A stretch of 64,000 bases of DNA from Patescibacteria group bacterium. Its GTDB lineage: Bacteria > Patescibacteriota > Patescibacteriia > UBA9570. The notes beneath the pieces were generated by a model. That model had not been told where the DNA came from, did no database searches, and worked only from the letters and a program-made list of their open reading frames with translations. Location of the stretch: NCBI GenBank assembly GCA_041665365.1, contig JBAYIY010000002.1:66178-130177 (forward strand), in the 5' to 3' direction. Shown piece by piece: positions 1 to 51,181 of the stretch. Position 1 is the stretch's first letter; each line of letters opens with the position of its first letter. The position numbers were made by a program, and so were the translations under genes.

Positions 1-1516
1 AATCATAAGTGGAGCCGGTGAAGACAAAGATTTCTTTAGGTGGTTTAGCTGGTTTCGGTTGCTCGGTTAAATTGTGCGTTTGGGCATAGGTTTTAATGAC
101 CGTTAAAAAACTATCTCCAAATTGAGTCAGTTTTTTTGTACCGACACCAGTGATCTGCACAAAACTGGTCTGACTTTGTGGAAAATAGGTGGCCATTTCC
201 TGCAAGCTCGTGTTACCAAAAATAATATAAGGTGGCACGCCTAACTGCTCGGCTAGTTGTTTACGCAGGTTTTTTAATTCATTAAAAAGAGTTGCATCAT
301 AGGCAGGTTCCTCAACTGTTTCATCACTAGTTTGGTGAGTACAAACATCACAACTGGCACATTTACCTGATGGATAGGATTCACCAAAATAGTTTAATAA
401 AAACTGCCGTCGGCAACGCTGCAGTTCAGCATATTTAATGACACAGTTTAATTGCTGCCAAACTTTATCACGCTCAGCTTGATCGGCCATTTGCTCAATA
501 AACCAAGCATGTTTACGTTTATCCGCATAAGAAAAAAACAGCACACACTCCGCCGGTAAACCATCCCGCCCCGCCCGACCGGTTTCTTGATAATACCCTT
601 CCACGGATTTTGGTAAATCATAGTGCACCACCAAACGCACATCGGGTTTATCTATCCCCATACCAAACGCAATGGTAGCAATAATAATATTGATCTCATC
701 ACGAATAAATTTTTCTTGTGTCTGTTGCCGCACAGCGCTAGTTAAACCAGCATGATAGGGGGCAGCCGAAAATTTTAGGCTCCGCAGCCGTTCGGCTAAT
801 TCTTCTGTGCCCTTCCGCGAAAAACAATAGATGATAACACTCTCTCCTTGATAATGCCGTAATAATTTCACTAAGCGCCCAAAGGTATCTTGTTTAGGCT
901 GAACCGAGTAGGTTAAATTTGGCCGGTTAAAACTGGAAATAAAAACTTTCGGCTCATGTAAGTTTAATTGCTTTAAAATATCCGCACGAACTGTTTCAGT
1001 GGCGGTGGCCGTGAGAGCAATAATCGGCACATCAGCAAAATCACCACGGAGTTTTTTTAAATTACGATACTCCGGCCGAAAATCGTGTCCCCATTCTGAA
1101 ATACAATGTGCTTCATCAATGGCGATTAAGCTAATTGGTAAACTATGCAGAAATTCCTGAAAACCAGACGTGGCTAACCGTTCTGGTGCCACATATAATA
1201 GTTTAACATGCCCATGTAGGGTTTGTTCTTGAATATCCTCAATCTGATTGGCAGTGAGTGTACTATTTAAGAAAGCCGCCTCAATGCCATTGGAGCGCAA
1301 TTGATCTACTTGATCTTTCATTAAAGAAATCAATGGCGATATCACCACTGTCACCCCCTCAACAGCGACTGCCGGCATCTGAAAACACAATGACTTTCCC
1401 CCACCGGTTGGCATTAACACCAAACAATCCCGTTGCGCCATGACGTGGTTAATGATTTCTTCTTGCAATGGTCTAAATTCCTCAAAACCAAAATGTTTTT
1501 TCAGTAGTGTTCTCAT
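1..1516 (-). CDS. recQ: ATP-dependent DNA helicase RecQ; the N-terminal ~505 aa are present and the C-terminus runs off the left edge of the window
   Basis: Minus-strand translation from the ATG at 1516 gives MRTLLKKHFGFEEFRPLQEEIINHVMAQRDCLVLMPTGGGKSLCFQ..., with DEAH (IDEAHCISEWGHDFRPEY) and Zn-binding motifs. An AAGAGG ribosome-binding site lies 11 nt upstream. The ORF is open to position 1, which is why the supplied track omits it. Confidence 0.9.
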   Translation of the reverse strand, partial: MRTLLKKHFGFEEFRPLQEEIINHVMAQRDCLVLMPTGGGKSLCFQMPAVAVEGVTVVISPLISLMKDQVDQLRSNGIEAAFLNSTLTANQIEDIQEQTLHGHVKLLYVAPERLATSGFQEFLHSLPISLIAIDEAHCISEWGHDFRPEYRNLKKLRGDFADVPIIALTATATETVRADILKQLNLHEPKVFISSFNRPNLTYSVQPKQDTFGRLVKLLRHYQGESVIIYCFSRKGTEELAERLRSLKFSAAPYHAGLTSAVRQQTQEKFIRDEINIIIATIAFGMGIDKPDVRLVVHYDLPKSVEGYYQETGRAGRDGLPAECVLFFSYADKRKHAWFIEQMADQAERDKVWQQLNCVIKYAELQRCRRQFLLNYFGESYPSGKCASCDVCTHQTSDETVEEPAYDATLFNELKNLRKQLAEQLGVPPYIIFGNTSLQEMATYFPQSQTSFVQITGVGTKKLTQFGDSFLTVIKTYAQTHNLTEQPKPAKPPKEIFVFTGSTYD

Positions 1517-1612
1517 AAAAAATACGCCTCTTGGGGGCGCTTGTGAGTGATAATAGCAAACTCAAAGATCCTGTCAATAGCTATAACCTATATTTATTGT
1601 TATCATATCGCT

Positions 1613-2365
1613 ATGACTGAATATAAACATTTTCGAGACGCTTTTAGACAAGTACGGAAAAAAACTGATGAGCATAGAATGTATGAAACAGGTGGAGATT
1701 GGGGAATACAAGACTCTGCATTAATAGTTGATCCTTCTAAACGTGCATCAGGATTCGAGCATCCTTATGATAGTGAGTTTGATTTTAGAGGCATGTACCC
1801 GGAAGAGTTTACAGATTTAAAAACATACCTTGAGGCACGTTTAGCATCAAAACCAGTGATCGGTATTGAGCTTGGCGGCAGAGCATCAAGACTTTTTTCA
1901 CAATTTACTCCAGGTTTTATTGAAAGAAGTCTAGGAGTTCTACTAAGTGACAATAGAAGCGCGTCACATCCACAACAGGCACAAGACGCTTTACGTCATC
2001 ACGAAGTTATAACTGCGGATGTATTTTCAACAGAGGGAAAGCAAACTATAAACAAGTGGTTAAATGGCCAAAAGGCCGATCTTATCTTCGAAAGGATGGA
2101 AGGGGCAATCAGCGATGGTCCGTATACTGAACCTGGATTCATGACAGCAGTATTCACTCGTTGGTATCGCCTGCTTTCAGAACGGGGCATAATGCTGGTT
2201 CAGTCACCCTGGCTTGATGCGACAACTTTGACAGATATGGAAACGAGACTTGATACTTTAAAGGAGCAACACATAGACGTAGTATATAAACGCCGACCGC
2301 TTGGTGACAAAGCAAGGTTATATACTATTTTGGAAAAAAAAGCAGGGGCGCCTGAAAGTTTTTAG
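1613..2365 (+). CDS. Hypothetical protein, possibly a divergent Rossmann-fold (SAM-methyltransferase-like) protein. The track starts at a GTG at 1547; an ATG at 1613 is more likely.
   Basis: 272-aa ORF. VIGIELGGRASRL resembles methyltransferase motif I and KADLIFERM resembles motif II. No confident family assignment is possible from sequence alone. Confidence 0.5.
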   Translation: MTEYKHFRDAFRQVRKKTDEHRMYETGGDWGIQDSALIVDPSKRASGFEHPYDSEFDFRGMYPEEFTDLKTYLEARLASKPVIGIELGGRASRLFSQFTPGFIERSLGVLLSDNRSASHPQQAQDALRHHEVITADVFSTEGKQTINKWLNGQKADLIFERMEGAISDGPYTEPGFMTAVFTRWYRLLSERGIMLVQSPWLDATTLTDMETRLDTLKEQHIDVVYKRRPLGDKARLYTILEKKAGAPESF

Positions 2366-2395
2366 TAGACTATTGTCTTTACGGGCGTTAAGGGA

Positions 2396-3952
2396 TTAGT
2401 TGGGCTGTAGTGCTTGTAAAAAACTCCGCGCTGCTGGAGACGTTTCCGCTTTGCGTAATTGAGAGGTAATACGGGCCTTCGTTTTATGACCACTTCCTAG
2501 TAAGGTTCTGGCTTGTTGACCTAAGCCCGCAGCTAATTTTGCTTGAACCACCCAAGCTTCTTCTCGATAATAAGCTAAATTAATTGGCTCAAGGTTTGCC
2601 GTTTCCAATAGTTTCTCAGCCTTTTTCAGGTATACCTGAACATCGCGCACCAAAATGTCTGGATGTGAGTTACTACTAAAGGACAGCTCGGCTAACTGTT
2701 TAGCAGTCGCAAGCTCCAGTGCTATGATATCATCGGTTTGAAATGTTTTTGGGTTTGTCTGCATTATATGTTCAGCAGCATCTACCACTCCACCAAAATT
2801 TGGGTTGGCACCATGTTTAGCTAAACTATCACCTAATCGTATTAAAAAATTAACCTGTTTATAGGGATTGGCAACAGTTTCATGTATTAACTTTTTTACC
2901 CCTAGTGCGATCGGCTCTTTAAAATGAGCGACTAGCGCTGTTCGTTCGCTAGCTGAATGTGGGCGCTCAACATATTGTAATGCTACTTCTCCATTAATAT
3001 CATCCTGATCAGTCTGAAAGTTTACTTCATTGTAGCGTCGCCCTGCACCCACTGCTCGTACGATCTTTGTGCTTAGTAATTGCAACATGGCTTGCGTATT
3101 GGGAATATCTCCTAAACGCGCTGCGGCTAGACCAGCTGCCTTGATGAAATCTGGACTATCTTCTTCTGGCGATCCCGATAACAACTCAGTTGCTTCAGAT
3201 ATACGTCCAATTTTTACTAACCCTTCAATCAACGACTCACGATCTGAAAAATCGGTTTGATACTCGGCCATCACGATATCATCAACCACACAACCATGCT
3301 CACTTAGTAGTAAAGCACTAGACAATAATTTTTCACGATGTTTGCTAGGATCGGCGTAGTATTTGTTAATTAAACGTTCCACTGTGGCACGATCCCCTTG
3401 CCTGGCATAGTAATCAATGATTGAATTGGCTTTATCAATTCGACTAGATTCCGGTAACGTATCAATCATCGTTTCAGCCCGAGCGAGCAATGCCAGATCC
3501 GATTTCTTTTCAGCAACTCGACAGAGCATATCAATTTGAATAGTGGGATCAGTGATAACTTGTAATGTCTGCTCAGCCGAAACAGTATCACCAGCCAAAT
3601 ACTGCCAAGCACCAATATCCATCAACTCCCAATCTCGATCATTTGCCCTATCATGACGCTGTGGAATGGTAATGCGATCATCCGTAGTAACTCTCTGTTT
3701 AATTTCCGCCAGCAATTTGGATACAGCAATAGCAATACCACCTTTATGTAGCTGATACGCCAAACGAGCGAGCGCAGCAGTATCACCAGAAGTGTGTGCA
3801 CCTTCTTCAGCGTTAGACAAAAAAACAGCCGCTTGTTCCGCAAGTCTGGCAGCTTCAATAATTTCTTGATTTTCTCTATCCAAGATCTCTGCACGCGGTA
3901 TTTCACGCCTTGTCATGTTCAAAATTCTATCAAAAAAAATGACTTTTGTCAA
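2396..3952 (-). CDS. Hypothetical alpha-helical repeat protein. The track uses a TTG start at 3952; an ATG at 3916 is possible.
   Basis: 518-aa ORF, convergent with the previous gene. Helical-repeat composition, no recognisable catalytic motif. Confidence 0.5.
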   Translation of the reverse strand: MTKVIFFDRILNMTRREIPRAEILDRENQEIIEAARLAEQAAVFLSNAEEGAHTSGDTAALARLAYQLHKGGIAIAVSKLLAEIKQRVTTDDRITIPQRHDRANDRDWELMDIGAWQYLAGDTVSAEQTLQVITDPTIQIDMLCRVAEKKSDLALLARAETMIDTLPESSRIDKANSIIDYYARQGDRATVERLINKYYADPSKHREKLLSSALLLSEHGCVVDDIVMAEYQTDFSDRESLIEGLVKIGRISEATELLSGSPEEDSPDFIKAAGLAAARLGDIPNTQAMLQLLSTKIVRAVGAGRRYNEVNFQTDQDDINGEVALQYVERPHSASERTALVAHFKEPIALGVKKLIHETVANPYKQVNFLIRLGDSLAKHGANPNFGGVVDAAEHIMQTNPKTFQTDDIIALELATAKQLAELSFSSNSHPDILVRDVQVYLKKAEKLLETANLEPINLAYYREEAWVVQAKLAAGLGQQARTLLGSGHKTKARITSQLRKAETSPAARSFLQALQPN

Positions 3953-3983
3953 TCTAGAATGCAGTAGACTAAGTCTTAGGTTA

Positions 3984-4220
3984 TTAACTAATAAGTTTCA
4001 ATTTATCAGTCCGTCGTAATTGTTTAATTTGAATTTCGCGTCTTAACGCACTGCCTTTCGTGCGACACCGCTGCGTATACACAATCCGCTCGACCGGGTG
4101 GGATCGGGTATAGCGACTAGCCGTACCGGCCTGATGCCTGGCCCACCGTTTGGGTAAATCATTTGTGATACCGGTATACAAACTACCGTCTAAACAGCAA
4201 AGAATGTAGACAGTATACAT
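3984..4220 (-). CDS. Small GIY-YIG nuclease family protein (UPF0213/YhbQ-like)
   Basis: 78 aa: MYTVYILCCLDGSLYTGITNDLPKRWARHQAG...YTR... is the GIY-YIG motif set seen in E. coli YhbQ. Its ATG lies 4 nt after the tRNA-Glu 3' end, and there is no Shine-Dalgarno sequence. Confidence 0.75.
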   Translation of the reverse strand: MYTVYILCCLDGSLYTGITNDLPKRWARHQAGTASRYTRSHPVERIVYTQRCRTKGSALRREIQIKQLRRTDKLKLIS

Positions 4221-4296: not shown

Positions 4297-4348
4297 ATAC
4301 TGAACAAACGTTGGGCTATTGTATACAAAATCCAAGTAGTCGTAAAGA

Positions 4349-4391
4349 ATCCAAATTTAACATTGAATATTAAATTTGGATATGCTATACT
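4349..4391 (+). promoter_or_regulatory. Operator-like inverted repeat overlapping a sigma70-type promoter; the transcript looks leaderless
   Basis: ATCCAAATTTAA-n9-TTAAATTTGGAT is a perfect 12-nt-arm inverted repeat at 4349-4381. It is followed by TGCTATACT (extended -10 at 4386-4391). The ATG at 4398 is only 6 nt further on. Confidence 0.4.
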
Positions 4392-4397
4392 ATCACT

Positions 4398-5573
4398 ATG
4401 TATACACGAACCATAGAAAAACGCTTCTTGGCCAGCGTCAAAACCTTTCCCGTGGTTATTCTGACCGGTGCACGACAAACGGGTAAAAGCACCTTGTGCA
4501 AAACCCTGTTGCATGACACCCATCGCTATGTATCATTGGAAGATCCAGACATTCGTCGCCAGGCTATCGAAGACCCCCGGACATTTTTACAAAATTTTCC
4601 TGCTCCAGTGATTCTGGATGAAATTCAGTATGCTCCAGATCTGCCCAGTTATATTCAAGGCATTGTTGACGAACATCGTACCAAATATGGACAATACATT
4701 TTGACTGGTTCACAAAATTTCTTACTAATGGAACGTGTCGCCCAATCCTTAGCCGGACGTGCAGCTCTCTTAACGCTTTATCCTTGTGCTGTCCAAGAAG
4801 TAGATGGCTCAACTGCTAAACCACGCTCATCAACTACGGCTGTAGCGGATTGGATATTGCGTGGTGGATATCCAGAACTGCGCAATCGCCCAGAACTAGA
4901 TCGGGCCACTTGGTGTTCAAGTTATATTAGACTCTATCTTGAACGTGATGTGCGCCAGTTGATTAATGTCACTGATTTAACGACCTTCGAAAGATTCGTC
5001 CATCATGTGGCGATTCGCACTGGGCAGATCTTAAATACCAGTGATCTAGCGCGTGATGTTGATGTCAGCGTACCAACGATTACGCGGTGGTTATCGGTGT
5101 TACAAGCCAGCTACCAAGTGTTTTTATTGGAACCCTATCACGCGAGTATTTCTAAACGCTTAGTTAAGGCTCCGAAAATCTATTTTGGCGACACTGCTTT
5201 AGCCTCATATTTGATGGGAATTCATGATCCTGAAGTTTTACTACAAGGGCCATTTCTTGGACATTTATTTGAAACCGCTGTTGTGCTAGAACATCTTAAA
5301 TGGGCTAGCATGAACGGTTTAAATTCAACCTTCTCCTACTTTCGCACCAAAGATGGAATTGAAGTTGATCTATTCATTGAACAAGGTGTAGAGATCATGG
5401 CTCGCGAAATAAAATCTTCCCGCACCCGCACCACTTTTACTACAAAAAATTTAATCCTAGCCGAAGAATTACTACAGCGCCCACTACACAAATCCATTCT
5501 AGCCCCCGTGTCGGAACCATCGATCATGAAGAGTGGCGTCACTGTGAAACCCTGGCATCAGGTAGAGTGGTAA
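4398..5573 (+). CDS. AAA+ ATPase of the DUF4143 family (COG1373-like)
   Basis: 391 aa with a Walker A motif (ILTGARQTGKSTL). The C-terminal DUF4143-like region resembles the widespread predicted-ATPase family. Confidence 0.7.
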   Translation: MYTRTIEKRFLASVKTFPVVILTGARQTGKSTLCKTLLHDTHRYVSLEDPDIRRQAIEDPRTFLQNFPAPVILDEIQYAPDLPSYIQGIVDEHRTKYGQYILTGSQNFLLMERVAQSLAGRAALLTLYPCAVQEVDGSTAKPRSSTTAVADWILRGGYPELRNRPELDRATWCSSYIRLYLERDVRQLINVTDLTTFERFVHHVAIRTGQILNTSDLARDVDVSVPTITRWLSVLQASYQVFLLEPYHASISKRLVKAPKIYFGDTALASYLMGIHDPEVLLQGPFLGHLFETAVVLEHLKWASMNGLNSTFSYFRTKDGIEVDLFIEQGVEIMAREIKSSRTRTTFTTKNLILAEELLQRPLHKSILAPVSEPSIMKSGVTVKPWHQVEW

Positions 5574-35365: not shown

Positions 35366-35406
35366 AATTACGTAGAGACGTGCCGCCGGCACGTCTCTAC
35401 GTAATT
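35366..35406. repeat. Palindromic element P1 of the GTAGAGACGT family, between the fusA stop and the tuf promoter
   Basis: AATTACGTAGAGACGTGCCG-c-CGGCACGTCTCTACGTAATT, 20-bp perfect arms. It is not followed by a U-run. Confidence 0.8.
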
Positions 35407-37744: not shown

Positions 37745-38191
37745 TTATTTCTGTACTACTCCGGCTGGTTTACCACCAATATTCTTGCGTTTGATAACGA
37801 AGAAATAGATGATCGCGGCAATTGGACCAAAGCCAAAGAAAAAACCAGCAATCAATATCACCATCCACAATGTCTTGTTGTCAAAAGTGCGTTTGGCACA
37901 ATCTATCACCATCCAGATTTCAAAAACAAATAGCAGTAATCCGATTAAACCACCGATCATTGCGATGATAATAAACACAATGCCTAATCCAGCAGCGGCT
38001 ACGCCAGCTGAAGAATCACTGTTGTAATCATAATTGTAGTCTGTGTTGTAGTCATAATTATAATCTGTATTATAATCGTAGTTATAATCACTGTTGTAAT
38101 CATAACTGACTGCCTGACCAGCATGAGCAAACGCTAACACTGGCAACACCAAGCCTAAACTCAGTGCGAAATTGCGAAATAATTTGAGCAT
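37745..38191 (-). CDS. Membrane protein with a signal peptide, a (DYNY)n repeat and a PLDc_N-like two-helix domain. It is inserted between rpsG and fusA.
   Basis: 148 aa: SYDYNSDYNYDYNTDYNYDYNTDYNYDYNSD, then WMVIDCAKRTFDNKTLWMVILIAGFFFGFGPIAAIIYFF. Confidence 0.65.
   Translation of the reverse strand: MLKLFRNFALSLGLVLPVLAFAHAGQAVSYDYNSDYNYDYNTDYNYDYNTDYNYDYNSDSSAGVAAAGLGIVFIIIAMIGGLIGLLLFVFEIWMVIDCAKRTFDNKTLWMVILIAGFFFGFGPIAAIIYFFVIKRKNIGGKPAGVVQK
38018..38105. repeat. Tandem 12/24-nt nucleotide repeat encoding the DYNY repeats
   Basis: ACTGTTGTAATC ATAATTGTAGTC TGTGTTGTAGTC ATAATTATAATC ...; about 3.5 copies of a 24-nt unit. Confidence 0.8.
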
Positions 38192-40091: not shown

Positions 40092-41277
40092 TTAAATGAT
40101 CTTATATTTCTTACCTAATTTGGTAAAAGCAGCCACGAGTGTATCAATTTGCTCAGTGGTGTGCAAGGCTGAAATTTGCACACGGATTCTGGCCTTGCCC
40201 ATGGGTACTACTGGATAACTAAAACCAACGACATAGATACCTTCCGCTAACATGTCTTTCGCCATATCACCGGCCGCTTTACCATCACCTATCATCACTG
40301 GCACAATTGGATGTTCTGAAACAGGTACAGTAAAACCAGCTTGCTGCATTAAATTTCTAAAGTGCAGCGTATTTTTCCATAATGTCTCACGCAGTTCGGG
40401 ATGTTGATCGATATAATCCAACACAAACATGGTCACAGTGGCAATCATCGGTGATAGTGAATTAGTAAACAAAGTAGTGCGTGCGCGTTGGTGATATAAA
40501 TCAATCATAGCTTTACTGCCAACCAAGGCGCCGCCATTAGACCCACCTAGAGCCTTACCAAACGTGGTGGTGATCAAATCGACTCTATCCAGCACACCGG
40601 CTTGTTCAATGCTGCCTCGGCCAGTTTGACCCATAAAACCTGAGGCATGGGAATCGTCTACTACTACATAAGCATCATACTTTTCAGCCAGATCGCAGAT
40701 ACCCTGCAGTGGCGCCACATCACCATCCATGCTGAACACACCATCGGTAACAACACAGCGCAATCTTTTACTCTGCGTATCTTTTAAATGTTGCTCAAGA
40801 TCAGCTAAATTCATGTGTTTAAAAATATGCCGCTCGGCTTTACACAGACGTATCCCATCAATCAAACTGGCATGATTCAATTCATCGGTAATCACGGCGT
40901 CCTGATCGGTCAATATAGTAGCAAACGCTGCTTCGTTGGCATCCCAACATGACGTAAAAGTGATCGCCGCTTCTTTATGAAACCACTGTGCCAGTTTGAC
41001 TTCTAGCTCTTGATGAATGGTCTGTGTACCGCAAATAAACCGCACACTGGATAGTCCAAAACCGTACTTTTCCAAAGCCTGTTTGCCCACTTCGACTAAC
41101 TCTTGCTTACCCGATAAACCTAAATAATTATTGGCACAAAAATTCAAATATTCTTTTCCGTCAACCACTACTTTTGTCCCCTGCCGTGAACTAATCACGC
41201 GTTGAGTTTTGGTTAAACCAGCCTGGTTTATTTCTGATAGAACTTGATTACAAACTTCGTTGAGACGTTGATTCATA
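40092..41277 (-). CDS. kbl: 2-amino-3-ketobutyrate CoA ligase (glycine C-acetyltransferase). ATG start taken at 41277; the track uses TTG at 41309.
   Basis: PLP-dependent alpha-oxoamine synthase fold (TFGKALGG with the PLP-binding Lys). It is paired with the upstream tdh. Confidence 0.8.
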
Positions 41278-41300
41278 TGGTTATTATAATAATCTTTCTT

Positions 41301-41382
41301 TACCCCCAACCCCCTTGCAGGGGGCTAAGAGAAGATTTTTTTTATTCTATCTTTTCCCCCTGCAAGGGGGACTAAGGGGGTA
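41301..41382. promoter_or_regulatory. G/C-rich tandem hairpin element in the tdh-kbl intergenic region
   Basis: TACCCCC...[CCCCCTTGCAGGGGG]CTAAG...T8...[CCCCCTGCAAGGGGG]ACTAA GGGGGTA. There are two 5-bp G/C hairpins, each followed by CTAAG, enclosed by the outer pair TACCCCC/GGGGGTA. Confidence 0.4.
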
Positions 41383-41414
41383 AATATTAGTTGGTAGATA
41401 AGATACGGTTCGTG

Positions 41415-42548
41415 TCAATTTTGCACATCAAAAATTAATTTTGGATAATCGCGCATGCGTTGTTCCATGAGTTCGGGTGTATATTCAGAAAATTTAATGA
41501 CCGTATCTTTACCACCATTGAGAATTATATTCCAAATTTTATCTTGGACACCGTTAGACTTGTCAGATAACACACTATCAATCGTTTGCCAGGTTTTGAA
41601 AATCTGTCGACCAATCACACAATGCAACGTTAAACCCTTCATGATCATGCCGGAAAATTTGTTGATCGTAAAATCGCCGTCTTTGATACCGAATAAAATC
41701 ACCTCTCCGCCAAACCGGGTAGTGGCGATGCAATTATTCACCGATGAGTTAAAACCAGCCATTTCCATAGTGATATCAGCCCCTCGACCAGCGGTGAGTT
41801 TCAACACCTCAGCACAAGCCTGACTATCCCCTTTTGGCTGAATTAACACTGTCTGGTGAGCGCCTAATTGTTTAGCAATATCCAGATTATGTTGGTTGGT
41901 ATCAACTCCAATTACTTGGCTAGCTCCAAACTGACGCGCCAATAAAATGGCAAACATACCAATTTGCCCACAGCCATAAATGACCACCTGTTTACCGCGC
42001 ACATCTACCTTACTTAAACTGTGTACGGCATTACCAAATGGATCACAAATCGCAGCAATTTCCGGACGTAATTTTGTCAGATCAATCGGCCACAGATTTT
42101 TGGCAGGTAAGTTTACTTGTTCGGCAAAAATACCATCGGTGCTGATACCTAAAATGGCTTGATCCTGACATACTTCCGCTTCACCTAACTTGCACTGATA
42201 ACAGTTTCCACAGGTAACATGTGAATCACCTGACACTGTATCTCCAACCTTAATACCATATAATTTTTCTACTTGCTCGCCCGCTGCTGTGACCTCACCG
42301 ACAAACTCGTGTCCTAAAATACGCAACGTTTTATGCTGTTTGTCTAGTGAATTGGCAAATACTTCAGAAAAAGCGACGCGATTCCAAATGCCACGATCTG
42401 ACCCACAGACACCGGCATATTTAACTTTTACCAGCACATGGGTAGCTTCGGTTAATGTCGGCACCGCAATTGGCCGTTTGATGAAGCCTTTTGATGTACT
42501 CCAACCGTCTTGTTTAAGATCTAATGTGAGAGCTTGAATATTAGTCAT
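41415..42548 (-). CDS. tdh: L-threonine 3-dehydrogenase (Zn-dependent MDR family)
   Basis: GHEFVGEV, GDSHVTCGNCYQCKLG and the Rossmann motif GCGQIG. It is in an operon-like pair with kbl. Confidence 0.8.
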   Translation of the reverse strand: MTNIQALTLDLKQDGWSTSKGFIKRPIAVPTLTEATHVLVKVKYAGVCGSDRGIWNRVAFSEVFANSLDKQHKTLRILGHEFVGEVTAAGEQVEKLYGIKVGDTVSGDSHVTCGNCYQCKLGEAEVCQDQAILGISTDGIFAEQVNLPAKNLWPIDLTKLRPEIAAICDPFGNAVHSLSKVDVRGKQVVIYGCGQIGMFAILLARQFGASQVIGVDTNQHNLDIAKQLGAHQTVLIQPKGDSQACAEVLKLTAGRGADITMEMAGFNSSVNNCIATTRFGGEVILFGIKDGDFTINKFSGMIMKGLTLHCVIGRQIFKTWQTIDSVLSDKSNGVQDKIWNIILNGGKDTVIKFSEYTPELMEQRMRDYPKLIFDVQN

Positions 42549-43623
42549 GCACCAGAGTATACAACAACTCTACATTTTTCGCGAGATCAGATATTTTGAT
42601 ATATTCATCTACGGTATGTAAATTACAGCCGCCTGTACCAATATTTACAGCTTTAATCCCATGTTTAATAAACGTATTGGCATCCGTTGAACCAACACAA
42701 GCCACTAAATTTGGTACAATATTCAAATCGGTCATGACACTCATGACATGTTTGAGTAATAGATCAGATTTTTTTAACTTATACCCATCCACCGCCACAT
42801 TACTGCATAATTCCAGTAATCCACCATATGTTTCACAAGCATCTTGCAAGGTTTTACTCATGTGCTCAATTTGATCTTCTATTTTCCGTTTGGAAAAACT
42901 GCGCGCCTCACCATGCAGAAAAACTTCAGCTGGAATAGAATTACGAATACTACCACCAGTAATGATACCAATATTAGCTGTAGTTGTTTGATCAATTCGT
43001 CCTAGTTTCATATGGTGAATGGCTGTAGCCGCAATTTTAATCGCACTGATGCCCTTTTCCGGATCAACCCCTGAATGAGCCGCTTTACCACGAATGTTGA
43101 CCCGAATATCGGCTAAATATGCCGAATGGTAATCTAGCTCACCAACGCCGCCTCCATCTATCACATAAGCGACCGGTGCATGAATCTGACTAAAATCCAA
43201 CGCCGCCGCTCCTTCAGAAAAAGTTTCTTCACTGGTGGTAAAAATAATCTCCAAGGGTGGATGTTTTACACCACGTTCTTTTAAAAGCGTGATGGCTTCA
43301 ATAATTTCAGCAATCCCCGCTTTATCATCAGCGCCCAATACGGAGGTACCATCGGTTTGAATCACATCACCCCGCACGACCGGCCGGATGCGCTGGCATG
43401 GCTGAACAGTATCCATATGCGCATTTAACAACAACGGCACCCCTTTACCCGGCAGATATCCAATTAGGTTTCCGGCTTTATCCACTTTGGTTTTTACACC
43501 CAGGGCGGTTAAATCTTTTTTGATCACCCGACTCAAAGCCGCCTCGTGGTGTGATGGGCTAGATATTTTGACATATTTTAAAAATGTTTTTACGAGACGG
43601 GTCATGTTGGTATGATAACACAA
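42541..43623 (-). CDS. Peptidase M20 family, peptidase T-like (tripeptidase)
   Basis: LNAHMDTV and the metal-ligand pattern of M20/PepT. The start may be MTRLVKT at 43605. Confidence 0.7.
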   Translation of the reverse strand: MCYHTNMTRLVKTFLKYVKISSPSHHEAALSRVIKKDLTALGVKTKVDKAGNLIGYLPGKGVPLLLNAHMDTVQPCQRIRPVVRGDVIQTDGTSVLGADDKAGIAEIIEAITLLKERGVKHPPLEIIFTTSEETFSEGAAALDFSQIHAPVAYVIDGGGVGELDYHSAYLADIRVNIRGKAAHSGVDPEKGISAIKIAATAIHHMKLGRIDQTTTANIGIITGGSIRNSIPAEVFLHGEARSFSKRKIEDQIEHMSKTLQDACETYGGLLELCSNVAVDGYKLKKSDLLLKHVMSVMTDLNIVPNLVACVGSTDANTFIKHGIKAVNIGTGGCNLHTVDEYIKISDLAKNVELLYTLVHD

Positions 43624-43658
43624 AATTTATATTGATGATTTTATTGTTTAATAATTTC

Positions 43659-43683
43659 AAAAAAAATAACCCCTCTCATGGGG
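43659..43683 (-). terminator. Rho-independent terminator for the high-GC minus-strand cassette
   Basis: Minus strand CCCCATGAGAGGGG followed by TTATTTTTTTTG. It is preceded by an 8-bp-stem hairpin at 43692-43730. Confidence 0.5.
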
Positions 43684-43737
43684 TAGGTTGGCCAGGGAGG
43701 AGTGCGTCGTGCTGCACTTCAACTCCCTGGCTTGGGA

Positions 43738-44052
43738 TCAGCAACCCATGCTGGGCTGCTGACTTCCCCGCTTCGGCGGTGGCGGGGGTGGCGACCCGAT
43801 GTCGAAATCATCGACCTCGGCGTCGTCGTATCCATCAGTGTCGTCATCGACGGGGTTGCCGTCGATGTCGGTGTCGTCATCACCGTCCATTGGATGGGAC
43901 GGTCGACGCGGCGGAGCAGTGAACTCCACCGCATCATCGTCCACCCGTGGGGGCGGCAGCCGGGGAGGCGACTCCTCCGGCTTTTTCGGTTCTGTTTTTT
44001 TGGGAGCTTCGGGGAGAACGTCCCCGATCTCCCACGAGCCGTTGTAGCACAT
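43738..44052 (-). CDS. Small acidic Pro/Asp-rich protein of unknown function, in the high-GC islet
   Basis: 104 aa: ...PPRVDDDAVEFTAPPRRPSHPMDGDDDTDIDGNPVDDDTDGYDDAEVDDFDIGSPPPPPPKRG. Codons are GC3-rich. Its ATG is 3 nt after the upstream ORF stop. Confidence 0.45.
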   Translation of the reverse strand: MCYNGSWEIGDVLPEAPKKTEPKKPEESPPRLPPPRVDDDAVEFTAPPRRPSHPMDGDDDTDIDGNPVDDDTDGYDDAEVDDFDIGSPPPPPPKRGSQQPSMGC

Positions 44053-44055
44053 CGG

Positions 44056-44232
44056 TCACCTCTCCTTTTCTTCGAATTTTTCGTTCATCTTCCGGAACGT
44101 TTCGGCATGTACCGGGTGATAGCCCGACACGTACTGACCGTTCGCGGTTTTGAAGTAGAAGGGCACGTTCGTACCCTTTTCACACAGGGCCGTAACCCCG
44201 TTTTTGGTTACTTGTTCCAACATTTCGTCCAC
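44056..44232 (-). CDS. Small ORF (55-58 aa) of unknown function in the high-GC islet; below the 60-aa track threshold
   Basis: (V)DEMLEQVTKNGVTALCEKGTNVPFYFKTANGQYVSGYHPVHAETFRKMNEKFEEKER. GGAGA lies 9 nt before the GTG at 44232; there is an ATG at 44223. Confidence 0.4.
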   Translation of the reverse strand: MDEMLEQVTKNGVTALCEKGTNVPFYFKTANGQYVSGYHPVHAETFRKMNEKFEEKER

Positions 44233-44379
44233 GATGTTGTCTCCAGAACACAGGAATCTGAATGACCCCTCTCCTTGATGTCACAAATCTTGTGGTAGCA
44301 AGGAAAAAAGTCAGTAGAAATGGTTGGTCGGCGGAGCGTATCACGTGCTCAACACCGACCAGTTTTTTTTGGGGGCGAC

Positions 44380-44553
44380 TCAGTCACCCCCGTAACCCGT
44401 GCCGATCCAGCGCGGATCGGTGTCGACCGGCTCGGTGGCCGGTTTCGGCGGGGAACGACGACGCTGCGGCGGCTGGGGTGGCGGGTTCCACCCTCCGTCG
44501 TGAGAATTATCAGGGATCGGGCGACGACGAGGTTCACGTTCTTCGGTCGGCAT
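44380..44553 (-). CDS. Small Pro/Arg-rich ORF (57 aa) in the high-GC islet; below the track threshold
   Basis: MPTEEREPRRRPIPDNSHDGGWNPPPQPPQRRRSPPKPATEPVDTDPRWIGTGYGGD. A GGAGAG ribosome-binding site lies just upstream. Codons are GC3-rich. Confidence 0.4.
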   Translation of the reverse strand: MPTEEREPRRRPIPDNSHDGGWNPPPQPPQRRRSPPKPATEPVDTDPRWIGTGYGGD

Positions 44554-44599
44554 GGTCTCTCCTGGGACACAGAGATCTCCATGATCTCTTTCCCTGACA

Positions 44600-45235
44600 A
44601 CACAACAAAATTATTGATTGGTGTGTTTTCAGTGAAAGAGGTTGGATGAGAGTTTTTTAAAGAAACCCTCTAAAACTTTGCCCCTTTTGGGGGCGCTCTC
44701 GCGTCACGGGACACCTCCTGGGATCAGATGATCCCGGTTGTCCAAACCGCAGGCTAGCGGCAGGAGCTGGCTACTGACTTTTATTCACATCTCCGGTTAC
44801 ACCTCCCTAGCCCTCCTATTGTAGGAGGGAATAAGAACAACCTATCTTACTCCCTTCCTAGAATAGGAAGGGTTGGGGAAGGTGTACACAGAAATGATTT
44901 AAGTTCAGCACTCAGCTCCCGGCTAATACAGCGGCCGGAACATATCTACGTTATCCTTTACTGATTGTCAATGAACCATTGAAATATCTACTAAAAATCC
45001 CGCTGGGTAAGCGGGTTAGACATTTCTGGATTCAACCTAGATTTCCTCTGCATCTAGTTGTATGTCTGTACCCGCTGACTTGGTGTAATAGTAGAACGAC
45101 GCACAATGAGTGTGAGAGATTTTACTGTTAATTTCCAAGTTTGCGTGTACAGCATACTTGGCGACCAGACTACACAATGATTAAAATTTTGTAAAGTATT
45201 ATTGTACGTAGTTATCCACAGACGGTGAAATTAAA
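44600..45235. other. About 640 bp of non-coding sequence of intermediate GC content, with several stable hairpins. It may be a structured RNA or the leader of the high-GC cassette.
   Basis: No ORF of 60 aa or more. Hairpins include CCCTCCTAttgTAGGAGGG, CCCTTCCTAgaaTAGGAAGGG (both enclosed by ACACCTCC/GGAAGGTGT), GGGATCAGATGATCCCGG and CCCGCTGGGTAAGCGGG. Confidence 0.35.
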
Positions 45236-45278
45236 CCGGTAGAGACGTGCCGGCGGCACGTCTCTACCGGTTTAATTT
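45228..45278. repeat. Palindromic element P3 (GTAGAGACGT family), overlapping the trpG-like stop. It is terminator-like.
   Basis: AAATTAAACCGGTAGAGACGTGCCGGCGGCACGTCTCTACCGGTTTAATTT followed by TTTTTT. It is the reverse-orientation twin of P1. Confidence 0.8.
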
Positions 45279-45844
45279 TTTTGTTCAAGAACATTACGTA
45301 TCATTTTTAGACCGTAATGCGGGTTAGTTAATATAGATTCAGGATGAAACTGTACACCTGTGATGGATAAACTTTTATGGCTAATACCCATCACAATATT
45401 ATCTTTAGTTTTAGCGGTGACAACAAAACAATCTGGTACATAATCAGCGGCTAAAGAATGATAGCGACCGACCAATAATGTTTTTGGTAAACCCTGAAAT
45501 ATACCTGAACCATCATGGGTAATAACAGAACCTCGCCCATGCACTGGCTTGGGTAACACTTGTAAGCTGCCACCAAAAGCTTCAAGCATGGCTTGCATGC
45601 CTAAACACACACCAAATTGCGGAATGACTCCGGAAAACTTTTTTATGTAAGTTAGTAGCTTCCCCGCTTGAGCTGGGTTACCCGGGCCAGGTGAATAGAC
45701 TAATAAATCTGGTTTTAGTTTTTTAATAACACTGACCGGAGTAGTATTATTTTTCACAATCACTTTTGCTCGACATTGGCGCAAATAGGCTACCAAGTTA
45801 TACGTAAAAGAATCGTGATTATCAATCAACCCGATGGTTTTCAT
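45272..45844 (-). CDS. Glutamine amidotransferase class I (anthranilate / aminodeoxychorismate synthase component II-like)
   Basis: GVCLGMQAM (catalytic Cys) plus the His/Glu region (QFHPES). Confidence 0.75.
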   Translation of the reverse strand: MKTIGLIDNHDSFTYNLVAYLRQCRAKVIVKNNTTPVSVIKKLKPDLLVYSPGPGNPAQAGKLLTYIKKFSGVIPQFGVCLGMQAMLEAFGGSLQVLPKPVHGRGSVITHDGSGIFQGLPKTLLVGRYHSLAADYVPDCFVVTAKTKDNIVMGISHKSLSITGVQFHPESILTNPHYGLKMIRNVLEQKN

Positions 45845-45864
45845 AAATATTCCAATATACTAGA

Positions 45865-46329
45865 TTATCGCTCGTCGCCGCCGTAGATCCAGTTGTAATC
45901 CATTTTTTCGTAGGCGAACAACTCGGTATCACTAAAGAAACGGCTCACTTCAGCCTTGGCTGATTCAGCTGAATCCGACGCATGGATAATATTATATTGC
46001 ACACTCATGGCAAAATCACCGCGGATACTACCGGCATCGGCGGCACGACCTTTAGTAGGACCAACAATTAAACGAATGGCATCAATCGCTTCATACCCTT
46101 CTAACACCATCATTACCACTGGAGCCGATTGCATAAACCGTTTCAAATCAGCAAAAAAAGGCTTATCGGCATGATGTGAGTAATGCTCAACTATTTTGGT
46201 ATCATCAATACGTATCATTTTTAAACCAACTACCTTTAAACCTTTCCGTTCAAAACGATGGATAATTTCACCAAGCAAATTACGTTGCAAAGCATCTGGC
46301 TTTACAATAATGAGTGAGCGTTGATTCAT
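45865..46329 (-). CDS. ndk: Nucleoside diphosphate kinase
   Basis: LIIVKPDALQRNLLGEIIHRFERKGLKVVGLK with the NIIHASD active-site His. Confidence 0.9.
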   Translation of the reverse strand: MNQRSLIIVKPDALQRNLLGEIIHRFERKGLKVVGLKMIRIDDTKIVEHYSHHADKPFFADLKRFMQSAPVVMMVLEGYEAIDAIRLIVGPTKGRAADAGSIRGDFAMSVQYNIIHASDSAESAKAEVSRFFSDTELFAYEKMDYNWIYGGDER

Positions 46330-46694
46330 TTGTGCAAAAGAGATTTAACCTTATCCACCACTTCTTGCGGTGTATGATTGGCTTTAATAAAATAATCCAC
46401 CGCACCTAACTCACGACCTTTGCGCACATCCTCCTCTTGGCCCAAATTGGTGAGTAAAATTACTGGGATCTTGGCTGTGGTTGGATCCTTTTTAAGTTTT
46501 TTTAAAGCCACAAAACCATCCATTTTTGGCATGATAACATCCAACAGTATCACGTCTGGATGTTCACTGGTGGCTAACTGCATACCATCGGCACCATTAT
46601 AGGCCGACAATATTTCGAACCCTTGGGTTTTAAACTTCCGGGTATACATCCCATGAAGCATTTCGTCGTCTTCGACTAATAGTACTTTATACAT
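46326..46694 (-). CDS. Single-domain response regulator receiver (CheY-like)
   Basis: VLLVEDDEMLHGMY...ILLDVIMPKMDGF gives the D-D-K receiver pattern. There is no output domain and no kinase nearby. Confidence 0.8.
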   Translation of the reverse strand: MYKVLLVEDDEMLHGMYTRKFKTQGFEILSAYNGADGMQLATSEHPDVILLDVIMPKMDGFVALKKLKKDPTTAKIPVILLTNLGQEEDVRKGRELGAVDYFIKANHTPQEVVDKVKSLLHK

Positions 46695-46699
46695 ATCTT

Positions 46700-48109
46700 T
46701 CAGTATATCACCTGCTCTACCATTCGTCCAACCCGCAACAACTTACTTTCACTCCACTGTGGCCCAATAATCTGCACACCCACCGGTAAATTATCAACAC
46801 TTCCCGCTGGCACTACTAAAGCTGGTACCCCGGCTAAAGATGGTGGAATAGTATAAACATCTTCCAAATACATTTGTAAAGGATCTTGGCTGTTCGCACC
46901 AATCACAAAGGCCGTACCCGGACACGGTGGTGTCATTAACACATCTACCTTTTTAAACGCTTCTGTAAAATCTTGCCGCACCAAACTGCGCACTTTCATC
47001 GCTTTGAGATAATAGGCATCATAATAACCAGACGATAAGGCATAAGTACCTAACATGATGCGCCGTTTCGCCTCGGCGCCAAACCCCTCTCCCCGACTGT
47101 TCATATAAACACTTAGTAAATCGGTGGTGTTATTACTCCGAAAACCATATCTAATACCATCAAAGCGCGCTAAATTTGAACTAACTTCTGATGGCACTAA
47201 TATATAATAACTGGGCATGGCATAGGACGTATGTGGCATGTCTACCTCTATTACCTCAGCACCTTGTTTACTTAACTGATTCACTAAGTCATGCACTATT
47301 TTCTTCACGGCCGGATTTAAACCGTCAATTTCTAAATATTGTTTGGCTAGACCTATTTTTAGTTGGCTTATGGGTTGTTCAAGATTTTCAGTGTAATTAA
47401 CCACTAAGTTTTCTGGCACGTTACTATCATGTTGATCTGGCCCGGCGATGGTTTCCATAATCATGGCTAAATCCTCGACTGATTCAGTTAAAGGGCCAAC
47501 TGTATCAAATGATGACGCCATGGGAATAACTCCATAACGTGGTACCAAACCATACGTTGGGCGCATACCCACGACACCACAAAATGAAGCTGGCTGACGA
47601 ATTGAACCTCCTGTATCACTACCAAAAGCAAAAGGTGCTAATGAAGCCGCCACGGCCGCCGCCGAACCACCAGACGAACCACCAGCCACGCGAGTAATAT
47701 CAGCTGGATTTTTAGTTACCCCGAAACATGAGTTTTCAGTAGATGAACCCATGGCAAATTCATCGGCATTAGTTTTGCCCAACAACACTGCACCGGTTAA
47801 CCGATTTATAACTGTAGCAGTATAGGGTGGTTTGTAGCCACGTAAAATATTTGAACAAGCTGTGGTCTCAATATCTTTTACACAATAAATATCTTTGGCA
47901 GCATAAGGAATTCCGGTAAATAAAGATTGTTTACCGGCTTGAATAAGTTTATCGGCTGCAGTGGCTTGCTGTAAGGCTAGTTCTTCTGTTACTAAAACAT
48001 AAGCGTTCAACGCAGGATTTTTTTCTTTAATCTGTGTTAAATATTCGGTCGTTAACTTGGTGGCAGTAGTTTGACCACTATCTAATTGTTCACGCAGTTG
48101 TTTTAACAT
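46700..48109 (-). CDS. gatA: Glutamyl/aspartyl-tRNA amidotransferase subunit A
   Basis: Amidase signature (GGSSGGSAAAVAA) and the Ser-cisSer-Lys triad region. Confidence 0.9.
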   Translation of the reverse strand: MLKQLREQLDSGQTTATKLTTEYLTQIKEKNPALNAYVLVTEELALQQATAADKLIQAGKQSLFTGIPYAAKDIYCVKDIETTACSNILRGYKPPYTATVINRLTGAVLLGKTNADEFAMGSSTENSCFGVTKNPADITRVAGGSSGGSAAAVAASLAPFAFGSDTGGSIRQPASFCGVVGMRPTYGLVPRYGVIPMASSFDTVGPLTESVEDLAMIMETIAGPDQHDSNVPENLVVNYTENLEQPISQLKIGLAKQYLEIDGLNPAVKKIVHDLVNQLSKQGAEVIEVDMPHTSYAMPSYYILVPSEVSSNLARFDGIRYGFRSNNTTDLLSVYMNSRGEGFGAEAKRRIMLGTYALSSGYYDAYYLKAMKVRSLVRQDFTEAFKKVDVLMTPPCPGTAFVIGANSQDPLQMYLEDVYTIPPSLAGVPALVVPAGSVDNLPVGVQIIGPQWSESKLLRVGRMVEQVIY

Positions 48110-48389
48110 GGATACTTTTTACTTTAATGTGTCCCTCGGCTGTTTCAATGGCACTGGCTAACATCTGGTCACGGGTAAATTCATCGGTTATGTCATCTGG
48201 CCGAAGTCTATTCGATAAACCGGTGACACTGGCCGTTGGTACTACCCCAGTTGTGTCTAACTGATTGAGTTGATCAACATAATCTAAAATCCGCGATAGT
48301 TCTACCTGAAACTGTTTTACTTCAGTCTCAGTTAAAGAGATGCGCGCTAAATGGCTGATTCTGATTACTTCGTCATGAGATAAAGCCAT
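48090..48389 (-). CDS. gatC: Glutamyl/aspartyl-tRNA amidotransferase subunit C
   Basis: 99 aa with the GatC profile (ISHLARISLTETEV...); directly upstream of gatA. Confidence 0.8.
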   Translation of the reverse strand: MALSHDEVIRISHLARISLTETEVKQFQVELSRILDYVDQLNQLDTTGVVPTASVTGLSNRLRPDDITDEFTRDQMLASAIETAEGHIKVKSIHVKTTA

Positions 48390-48394
48390 GGCGA

Positions 48395-51181
<2,787 letters not shown>

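Follow-up and report, generated by a model that had tools for sequence, protein, structure and literature searches.

A GC-rich islet of Shine-Dalgarno-led small open reading frames upstream of a pepT-like gene in a Patescibacteria group bacterium

Composition and extent of the islet

The window analyzed here, a 64-kb stretch of DNA from a Patescibacteria group bacterium, contains an islet of high guanine-plus-cytosine (GC) content upstream of a gene for an M20 peptidase (pepT-like), and this islet carries three small open reading frames (ORFs) on the minus strand, preceded by a conserved RNA leader. It is flanked by the pepT-like gene and by a gene encoding a class-I glutamine amidotransferase (PabA/TrpG-like), and tdh-like and kbl-like genes follow downstream of pepT (pepT-tdh-kbl cluster). 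All coordinates are those of the 64-kb window, and features of the islet are read on the minus strand unless stated otherwise.

An earlier note on this DNA, made from the sequence alone, had described an abrupt GC-rich islet at 43655-44600 in DNA of ~40% GC, and sliding windows bear out this contrast (0.60-0.64 against about 0.41). In 200-nt windows, the GC content rises from 0.375 at 43500-43699 to 0.60-0.62 at 43700-44099, dips to 0.485-0.50 at 44100-44399, reaches a second peak at 44300-44599 (0.635-0.64), and then declines to 0.465 (44500-44699); the maximum in 150-nt windows is 0.69. Outside the islet the window holds 0.37-0.45 GC per kb, and the genome is at about 0.41. The two peaks with a dip between them indicate that the islet consists of two GC-rich blocks (ORF3 and ORF1) split by a block of ~50% GC (ORF2). 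The GC islet lies where the note had placed it, but the unusual region is wider and comprises the entire 1.67-kb gap 43606-45271.

The islet was also found in independent assemblies. A Logan contig of SRR6484324 is 100% identical to the window over 41355-48788, and two contigs of Joint Genome Institute (JGI) 3300037810, which is another sample, match 43995-48404 and 41157-44149 at 99.75-99.97% identity, so that both junctions are crossed. Within the islet, the JGI contigs depart from the window only by a stretch of Ns (44594-44599) and by a single substitution, C>T at 44023, which falls on the third position of ORF3 codon 10 (GGG>GGA) and is synonymous. The available contigs of each species are mutually identical, and they therefore give no estimate of the ratio of nonsynonymous to synonymous substitution rates. 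The JGI sample id reportedly occurs in a paper on landfill viromes, and the habitat is probably landfill. Several independent assemblies (the starts of contigs L146, L147, L148, and L156) break 110-540 nt upstream of pepT; together with the Ns, these breaks suggest that the islet is hard to assemble, possibly owing to GC content, hairpins, or structural heterogeneity.

The three ORFs and their predicted products

Three ORFs led by ribosome-binding sites are located on the minus strand at the coordinates proposed earlier, including the tight coupling of the second and third. ORF1 (44380..44553, 57 aa) contains 25% Pro, is Arg-rich, is preceded by the Shine-Dalgarno sequence AGGAGAG, and occupies the position of the GC-rich ORF found in related genomes; its coding status is the least certain among the three. 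ORF2 (44056..44232, 58 aa) begins with a GTG start behind the Shine-Dalgarno sequence GGAGA. ORF3 (43738..44052, 104 aa) contains 20% Pro and has a net charge of -16, which agrees with the strongly acidic product described before, and its Shine-Dalgarno sequence AGGAGAGG lies within the end of ORF2. According to the coordinates, ORF2 and ORF3 share a reading frame and are separated only by TGA CCG. The start contexts are AGGAGAGacc-ATG for ORF1, GGAGAcaacatc-GTG for ORF2, and AGGAGAGGtgaccg-ATG for ORF3, with a GGAG-type site 5-8 nt 5' of the start codon in all three.

ORF3 contains an in-frame 33-nt tandem duplication (43818-43881), whose unit of 11 residues gives rise to two DxDxDG motifs, DTDIDG and DDDTDG. 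A repeat of 33 nt that stays in frame supports ORF3 as coding. The GC contents of the three codon positions (GC1/2/3) are.72/.66/.64 in ORF1, which is uninformative,.51/.32/.66 in ORF2, which is coding-like, and.70/.50/.70 in ORF3, while host genes are at about.53/.38/.35. The GC3 bias noted earlier is thus present, but it is modest, and codon periodicity is absent from ORF1. The plus strand also carries ORFs (187, 111, and 109 aa), none of them with a usable ribosome-binding site, and no Shine-Dalgarno-led ORFs of the islet kind occur on that strand. At least three Shine-Dalgarno-led ORFs on one strand were obtained in 0.45% of 2000 dinucleotide shuffles (P=0.0045). The minus strand is retained as the coding or functional strand, as had been proposed.

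Searches of Pfam, PHROG, NCBIfam, and PADLOC with the three ORFs and the antisense ORFs gave nothing past any threshold, in agreement with the earlier statement that no domain is recognisable, and a PDB sequence search with ORF3 gave 0 matches. Among 5.8 billion proteins, ORF2 and ORF3 matched only themselves. An HMMER scan of 1.84 billion representatives with ORF2 returned ORF2 itself and giant repeat proteins (cadherin/Big_9, Sushi, HEAT, BRCA2, and SEA proteins), which were rejected as summed-repeat artefacts. Searches of phage, plasmid, and IMG/VR collections at the DNA and protein levels (50,697 phage records, blastn/tblastn) found nothing for the window ORFs or for the corresponding ORFs of related genomes. 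ORF2 weakly resembles the first 35-40 residues of mature SBP_bac_3/PheC-fold proteins, all matches falling over the same stretch: in the PDB, 3kbr and 5hpq (PheC) at E=0.11, and in NCBIfam, GltI at E=0.09 and FliY at E=0.13, these two far below the cut-offs. ORF2 is absent from the gene calls of the Logan contig.

A single-sequence AlphaFold model of ORF3 has no secondary structure (predicted template modelling score, pTM, 0.13). The corresponding model of ORF2 is a helix, a beta-hairpin, and a helix at low confidence (predicted local distance difference test, pLDDT, 60), for which Foldseek found no fold match. According to these models, the Pro/Asp-rich product of ORF3 is predicted to be a disordered chain, and we infer the same for the Pro/Arg-rich product of ORF1, while ORF2 may form a small alpha/beta unit.

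RNA elements in the window

Along the minus strand, the unit is headed by a promoter-like site, TTCACC-17-TACAAT (45201..45229), which was found as a scan match 5' of the conserved leader and overlaps a TGTGGATAAC box (45206-45215). This box is conserved in the window and in the related contigs L141, L142, and L149, where it marks the upstream edge of the leader, and it complements the DnaA-box consensus TTATCCACA perfectly. An oriC, suggested by the perfect DnaA-box complement TGTGGATAA, was rejected, because the box occurs only once, neither strand nor skew switches here, and L152 lacks the box. The single copy of TGTGGATAAC and the lack of a skew switch suggest that the box is probably part of a promoter or operator and not of an origin.

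The conserved leader itself (44989..45163, ~175 nt) is recognised by our covariance model R1 with 143 bits. Its P1 helix (AAGTATG.../...CAGACATAC) covaries in L152, and in the consensus fold the strand GCGGG..CAGAC pairs either with P1 or with GTCTG..CCCGC of the 5' arm of a terminator. This intrinsic terminator lies at 45015-44999 and is followed by a U-run. The leader contains a mini-ORF (45155-45054) of 33 aa, MLYTQTWKLTVKSLTLIVRRSTITPSQRVQTYN, with 7 Thr. A mini-ORF of 25-35 aa is present in all five genomes that carry the leader (the window and four relatives), with Thr at 6-8 of 32-33 residues in three and at 3-4 in the other two; the Thr codons are not tandem, except for TTT in L141. 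From its sequence and predicted pairings, the leader is put forward as a candidate for a leader-peptide attenuator or a riboswitch; the cluster downstream of it includes tdh-/kbl-like threonine catabolism genes.

Downstream of the leader, the sequence GGATAACGTAGAT (44945..44957) is the counterpart of the 5' arm GGTAACGTAAG of a closing stem found in related genomes; its 3' partner was sought in the window, and none was found. It is followed by a rod-like folded domain of ~200 nt (44739..44942), whose two-hairpin apex (a three-way junction, 44800-44890) is conserved and homologous to L142 6835-6920. U-G pairs of the three-way junction are possible on the minus-strand RNA only. The fold z-score of 44554-44945, including the 200-nt rod, is -9.6. 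A 23-bp imperfect hairpin (44586..44640) lies in the 5' untranslated region just upstream of ORF1 and holds the Ns of the JGI scaffold. Between ORF1 and ORF2, three hairpins (44263..44391; z -4.6) were located at 44391-44371, which spans the ORF1 stop, 44361-44325, and 44313-44263. Through ORF3 runs a string of ~11 local hairpins (43655-44060, z=-8.5), and in 150-nt windows the structure of this region is stronger on the minus strand (-7.0) than on the plus strand (-2.2). The 3' end of the unit (43659..43731) consists of a hairpin at ~43730-43690, a terminator hairpin at 43684-43669, and U8 at 43666-43659, confirming the two hairpins and U8 terminator reported before. The 3' end might also pair over a long distance with the three-way junction; the duplex is better than those of 99% of shuffles, which is suggestive only. 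The islet is both ORF-bearing and unusually folded.

In Rfam 15, the window has only two tRNAs at the gathering threshold, and the best hits of the islet are 11-28 bit chance matches to microRNA and small nucleolar RNA families; the relatives gave no Rfam match at gathering or permissive thresholds, and a tRNA/tmRNA scan of the islet gave none. No further match to R1 was found in the window or in ~60 other pepT loci.

The pepT locus in related genomes

Scans of GTDB representatives and JGI metagenomes for pepT reached at best ~41% identity and allowed no classical empty-site comparison. The relatives used here are contigs with a pepT 58-66% identical, which come from a larger protein collection and some of which are named Kerfeldbacteria. 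Four independent genomes were counted (L149 is identical to L150). The pepT of the window is 62-67% identical to those of a clade formed by L141, L142, and L149 (75-93% within the clade), and about 49% identical to that of L152. Downstream synteny is kept, with pepT followed by a zinc alcohol dehydrogenase (ADH; tdh-like), an aminotransferase (kbl-like), a ferredoxin, an M50 peptidase, S12, and S7.

In all four relatives, pepT is preceded, in the same orientation, by a gap of 0.9-1.5 kb that contains a block with a GC content of 0.62-0.72, compared with about 0.46-0.49 for the genomes. The cargo ORFs of these relatives measure 98, 74, 136, and 99 aa. Each block contains an ORF whose ATG stands at the right distance behind GAGG or GGAG and whose GC3 is.78-.86, and the ORFs of L149 (.67/.50/.85) and L152 (.60/.39/.86) show a clearly coding periodicity. 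The islet that the earlier note proposed to look for in related genomes is thus present as a GC-rich, Shine-Dalgarno-led ORF upstream of pepT in four of them, but the ORF sequences cannot be aligned with those of the window. Together with the window, the ORF is in the same orientation in 5/5 genomes, and each locus has one unit. The ORFs of L141 and L142 have in common only the C-terminal 20-24 aa (E=5e-6), where four synonymous differences, including an AGC/TCC serine switch, indicate selection at the protein level. L149, in turn, carries an entirely different ORF of 136 aa, despite a pepT 75-83% identical to those of L141 and L142. This sense ORF was missed by gene callers, which annotated antisense ORFs of 56 and 134 aa instead (L149 2042-2576, L150 1050-1584).

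RNA scaffolding is also conserved at the locus. The leader is present in all five genomes, with R1 scores of 111-156 bits in the four relatives (L141 6593-6781, L142 6590-6768, L149 1905-2060, and L152 4127-4302). In the relatives, a covarying long-range stem, GGTAACGTAAG(N)/(N)CTTACGTTACC, closes off the domain of 450-640 nt that holds the GC-rich ORF; its arms measure 11-13 bp (GGCAACGTAGT/ACTACGTTGCC in L152), and it lies at L141 6875-7322, L142 6777-7414, L149 2088-2723, and L152 about 4338-4888. Its 13 pairs are paired in 96% of cells, and five of them show compensatory double changes, which none of 500 shuffles reached. The minimum-free-energy folds of the four relatives use this stem (z-scores -4.1 to -9.1). 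The arm motif is confined to the pepT locus in all fetched DNA; a viral contig (L151) matching the 3'-arm motif was rejected, being unrelated coding DNA with a chance match.

L145, with a pepT 58% identical, has neither leader nor islet, and its asparagine synthase gene ends 20 nt before pepT (808-4001), which suggests that the group can dispense with the module, or that the module was acquired or lost within it. A second leader-like block, likewise conserved (AATCAGCTCAAGG...GGCTGATT.TAGTGA.CT.GCGTTTC), was observed after a terminator in L141 (7440-7650), L142 (7560-7775), L148 (1-75), and L156 (100-305). It precedes a conserved, Shine-Dalgarno-led ORF of 56-62 aa (NGVT...CYH...F..LLAQHFG) just before pepT and is not in the window.

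Shine-Dalgarno contrast with the host genes

The mode of initiation also sets the islet apart. Among the 59 host ORFs of the window with 120 aa or more, 4 are preceded by Shine-Dalgarno-like motifs, compared with 3/3 ORFs of the islet, and 5/34 genes of the related genomes have such sites. Many genes of the host and its relatives (window, L141, L142, L149, and L152) have instead a TATAAT- or TATACT-like box 6-10 nt 5' of the ATG, and a box so close to the start suggests mostly leaderless mRNAs in this lineage. Since both composition and initiation signal are atypical, the islet ORFs are exceptional in their host. The affiliation of the host agrees with its ribosomal protein cluster, where S5 is directly followed by L15 without L30 between them, an arrangement that is a hallmark of the candidate phyla radiation, and a protein identical to its pepT-like product is carried in NCBI as a protein of a Patescibacteria metagenome-assembled genome.

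Large ORFs (~600-650 aa) without a Pfam match were observed near pepT in L141 (10008-11966), L152 (7469-9259), and L148 (1809-3764). Those of L141 and L152 have strong Shine-Dalgarno sites, and GC reaches 0.585 at the start of the L141 ORF (10000-10199, one window). The islet ORFs and these large ORFs may form one Shine-Dalgarno-led class.

Interpretation of the locus

According to these results, the islet is best read as the variable core of a native locus upstream of pepT-tdh-kbl and not as recently imported DNA. More specifically, we favour, with a probability of about 0.5, a native, lineage-specific, attenuator-linked transcription unit, in which a structured mRNA encodes fast-evolving small proteins by Shine-Dalgarno initiation. 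The presence of a GC-rich, Shine-Dalgarno-led ORF at this locus in the relatives indicates an old and persistent lineage trait, which is hard to square with recent import. As the GC content is high in all islet-bearing relatives, selection acting on the RNA structure and/or the codons, or else biased gene conversion, would keep it so, and it would not be a transient mark of transfer.

The unit would be read in the order of a leader with its promoter, a strongly folded and conserved 5' region, ORF1-ORF2-ORF3, and a double hairpin with the U8 terminator. Through the mutually exclusive pairings of P1, antiterminator, and terminator, the leader may behave as a transcription attenuator. Transcription past the leader terminator, or from a weak promoter at 44971-44943, would yield a very stable, hairpin-dense mRNA. 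Ribosomes would then start on it through Shine-Dalgarno pairing, which would be exceptional in a mostly leaderless, Shine-Dalgarno-less genome, and ORF3 would be translationally coupled to ORF2. The ORF content differs completely among close relatives, which means that turnover or replacement of the cargo is real. Extremely rapid evolution of the proteins is one possibility, and a plausible one for disordered chains rich in Pro and Asp; replacement of the cargo within the conserved flanks is the other.

Several points weigh against this reading. No significant alignment was obtained between ORF1-3 of the window and the ORFs of the relatives, so that conservation of these particular ORFs is unproven; the sole tblastn similarity, between ORF3 and the L142 ORF, is a succession of Pro-rich, acidic, and Pro-rich segments and thus compositional or of low complexity. 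Comparison of ORF2 with the S-family small ORFs of the relatives (hhalign) was not significant, nor was that of the L149 and L152 cargo, whose E=0.016 was obtained in a tiny database. ORF1 lacks codon periodicity, and DNA of 63-69% GC also yields antisense ORFs of such lengths (up to the 187 aa given above). The window has no 3' arm of the closing stem, and its architecture differs in this respect from that of the relatives. The extreme hairpin density in ORF3 fits a non-coding RNA equally well, and the wholly different cargo of L149 could reflect replacement by horizontal transfer instead of divergence in place.

Four other explanations were considered. The islet might represent one or several large structured non-coding RNAs, with the ORFs and GGAG motifs as by-products of GC- and purine-rich helices. 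Consistent with this are the fold z-scores, which lie between -4 and -9.6 for the window and all four relatives, the ~11 minus-strand-biased hairpins through ORF3, the covarying closing stem, the sense-strand U-G pairs of the three-way junction, the aperiodic ORF1, and the lack of ORF conservation between genomes; moreover, long intergenic regions that are GC-rich within an AT-rich genome are known to mark structured RNAs (the GC-rich intergenic region, GC-IGR, approach). It is nevertheless considered unlikely, since no Rfam family matches at any threshold, the relatives' ORFs have coding periodicity (GC3.85-.86 against GC2.39-.50), the stretch common to L141 and L142 is conserved at the protein level with synonymous changes, an ATG stands at the right distance behind GAGG/GGAG in every genome, and the ORF3 repeat is in frame. 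The sequence inside the stem is also unconserved, so covariation lends no support to an internal fold. Quite unlikely, in our estimate, is an exchangeable cassette, in which the arms GGTAACGTAAG/CTTACGTTACC would be DNA recombination or inversion sites (integron-, inverton-, or dif-like) and the GC-rich cargo would be swapped from an unsampled mobile pool. The complete difference in cargo between L149 and L141/L142 within conserved flanks, a cargo composition and Shine-Dalgarno use foreign to the host, the assembly breaks just upstream of pepT, and the one scaffold with Ns would fit such exchange, and the perfect Watson-Crick inverted arms with concerted changes fit recombination-homogenised repeats as well as an RNA stem. 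On the other hand, no integrase, invertase, or transposase adjoins any locus, the arms flank the ORF without forming a contiguous attC and by inspection do not fit RYYYAAC/GTTRRRY, the motif occurs at the pepT locus only, the ORF orientation never varies, the window lacks the 3' arm, and the searches turned up neither a donor nor another copy of any cargo.

Two further explanations go back to the earlier note. It had suggested a recently acquired phage or plasmid moron, whose acidic product might be an anti-restriction DNA mimic or whose three ORFs might be a toxin/antitoxin-like trio; a variant is that the islet consists of junk fragments of foreign genes. Atypical composition and Shine-Dalgarno use, a terminator of its own, and the charge of ORF3 speak for a moron, and the resemblance of ORF2 to the N-terminus of SBP_bac_3/PheC proteins would suit a gene fragment. 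Nevertheless, the locus is GC-rich in relatives with a pepT only 49-67% identical and keeps its RNA scaffolding there, by which recent import is largely refuted; no phage, plasmid, or viral-contig similarity was found for DNA or protein, and the genes next to it have housekeeping functions. None of the three ORFs matches a family of defence, toxin-antitoxin, or anti-restriction proteins (Pfam, NCBIfam, and PADLOC), and ORF3, which has no PDB match, is predicted to lack secondary structure, unlike Ocr and ArdA, which are folded DNA mimics. We therefore regard this origin as improbable. A chimeric assembly, to which the abrupt compositional junctions and the Ns in one JGI scaffold could point, is refuted for practical purposes by the Logan and JGI contigs across both junctions and by analogous islets in four other genomes from other projects, and its probability is close to nil.

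Beyond the preferred reading of a native, attenuator-linked unit, it is possible, but doubtful, that the locus is of a kind not described so far in Kerfeldbacteria-like genomes: an attenuator-controlled, stem-closed RNA domain that holds GC-rich, Shine-Dalgarno-dependent small ORFs, remote in composition from the rest of the genome and with near-complete sequence turnover among close relatives. Such a locus might serve as a site of capture, exchange, or hyper-evolution of small disordered proteins, possibly for host-cell interaction, or as a dual RNA/protein element, and would provide a Shine-Dalgarno channel apart from leaderless translation.

On the preferred reading, the islet has several implications. 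It is a counter-example to the equation of a compositional island with recent horizontal transfer, as the block stays about 20-30 GC points above the genome while pepT has diverged to ~50% identity, and it would be upheld by something other than ancestry. At least two RNA elements outside Rfam 15 are involved, namely the leader with its Thr-rich mini-ORF and the covarying closing stem with the three-way junction. A small class of Shine-Dalgarno-led genes in otherwise Shine-Dalgarno-less bacteria would open differential control of translation in Patescibacteria to testing. The small proteins are orphans, and two of them, rich in Pro and Asp, are predicted or presumed to be disordered; a role of these products in host-cell interaction is worth testing, although none is shown here. 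Finally, gene callers mishandle such GC-rich blocks, as seen from the antisense calls in L149 and L150 and the missed ORF2 in the Logan contig.

Further observations around the islet

The neighbouring genes in the window encode GatC/A, a response regulator, NDK, GATase, the M20 peptidase, and ADH. A perfect hairpin with 25-bp arms is located at the pabA stop codon (45228-45278) and looks like a bidirectional terminator. An identical 29-nt copy of it occurs at 35372-35400, directly after an EF-G-like ORF, and the pabA-stop hairpin hence appears to be a reused native terminator module. In addition, an ORF of 148 aa lies at 37745-38191 (minus strand), between the S7 and EF-G genes; its N-terminus resembles a signal peptide, and it contains (DYNY/NTDYNY)n repeats.

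Comparison with known systems

Nothing comparable was found in Rfam, the protein-family libraries, or a brief literature search. The islet is composed of known kinds of parts (attenuator, structured 5' untranslated region, and Shine-Dalgarno-led small ORFs) in a configuration that matches no described system found. With phage morons, Ocr, and ArdA, it has in common a small autonomous unit with its own terminator, atypical GC content, and, in ORF3, a very acidic product; it differs from them in the absence of phage context, the conservation of the locus in relatives, the predicted disorder of the Pro-rich ORF3, and the lack of any family match. The tandem DxDxDG motifs of ORF3 resemble calcium-binding loops (EF-hand-like, Excalibur, and thrombospondin type 3), but ORF3 has neither a Pfam match to such a domain nor a predicted fold.

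Like integron cassettes and clusters of attC sites lacking integron-integrases (CALIN), the locus has a fixed chromosomal site, hairpin-forming inverted repeats, and a cargo that varies between related genomes, and its small orphan ORFs are poor in promoters, atypical in composition, and uniform in orientation. Unlike them, it has no IntI and only a single unit in each genome, and the arm motif is restricted to this locus in the fetched DNA. The arms of 11-13 bp stand on either side of the ORF, 450-640 nt apart, instead of forming a contiguous attC of 57-141 bp, and the hairpins after ORF1 and ORF3 measure 16-40 nt and do not contain the R'' RYYYAAC/R' GTTRRRY cores. Structured RNAs found by the GC-IGR approach likewise occupy GC-rich gaps, and the 1.67-kb gap in a 41% GC genome, the extreme predicted folding, and the covarying helices are similar; the Shine-Dalgarno-led ORFs with coding periodicity (relatives and ORF2) and the absence of an Rfam 15 match are not.

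The leader, finally, can be compared with leader-peptide attenuators (thr, trp, and his) and riboswitches. It differs from them in that it has no tandem regulatory codons (TTT in L141 being the exception), that no meaningful Rfam match was obtained, including Thr_leader and Trp_leader, and that it precedes an orphan GC-rich small-ORF unit and not a biosynthetic operon. It resembles them in its promoter-like site, its short, conserved, Thr-rich ORF, which overlaps the alternative antiterminator and terminator helices, its intrinsic terminator, its alternative pairing, and the tdh-kbl genes that lie downstream of pepT.

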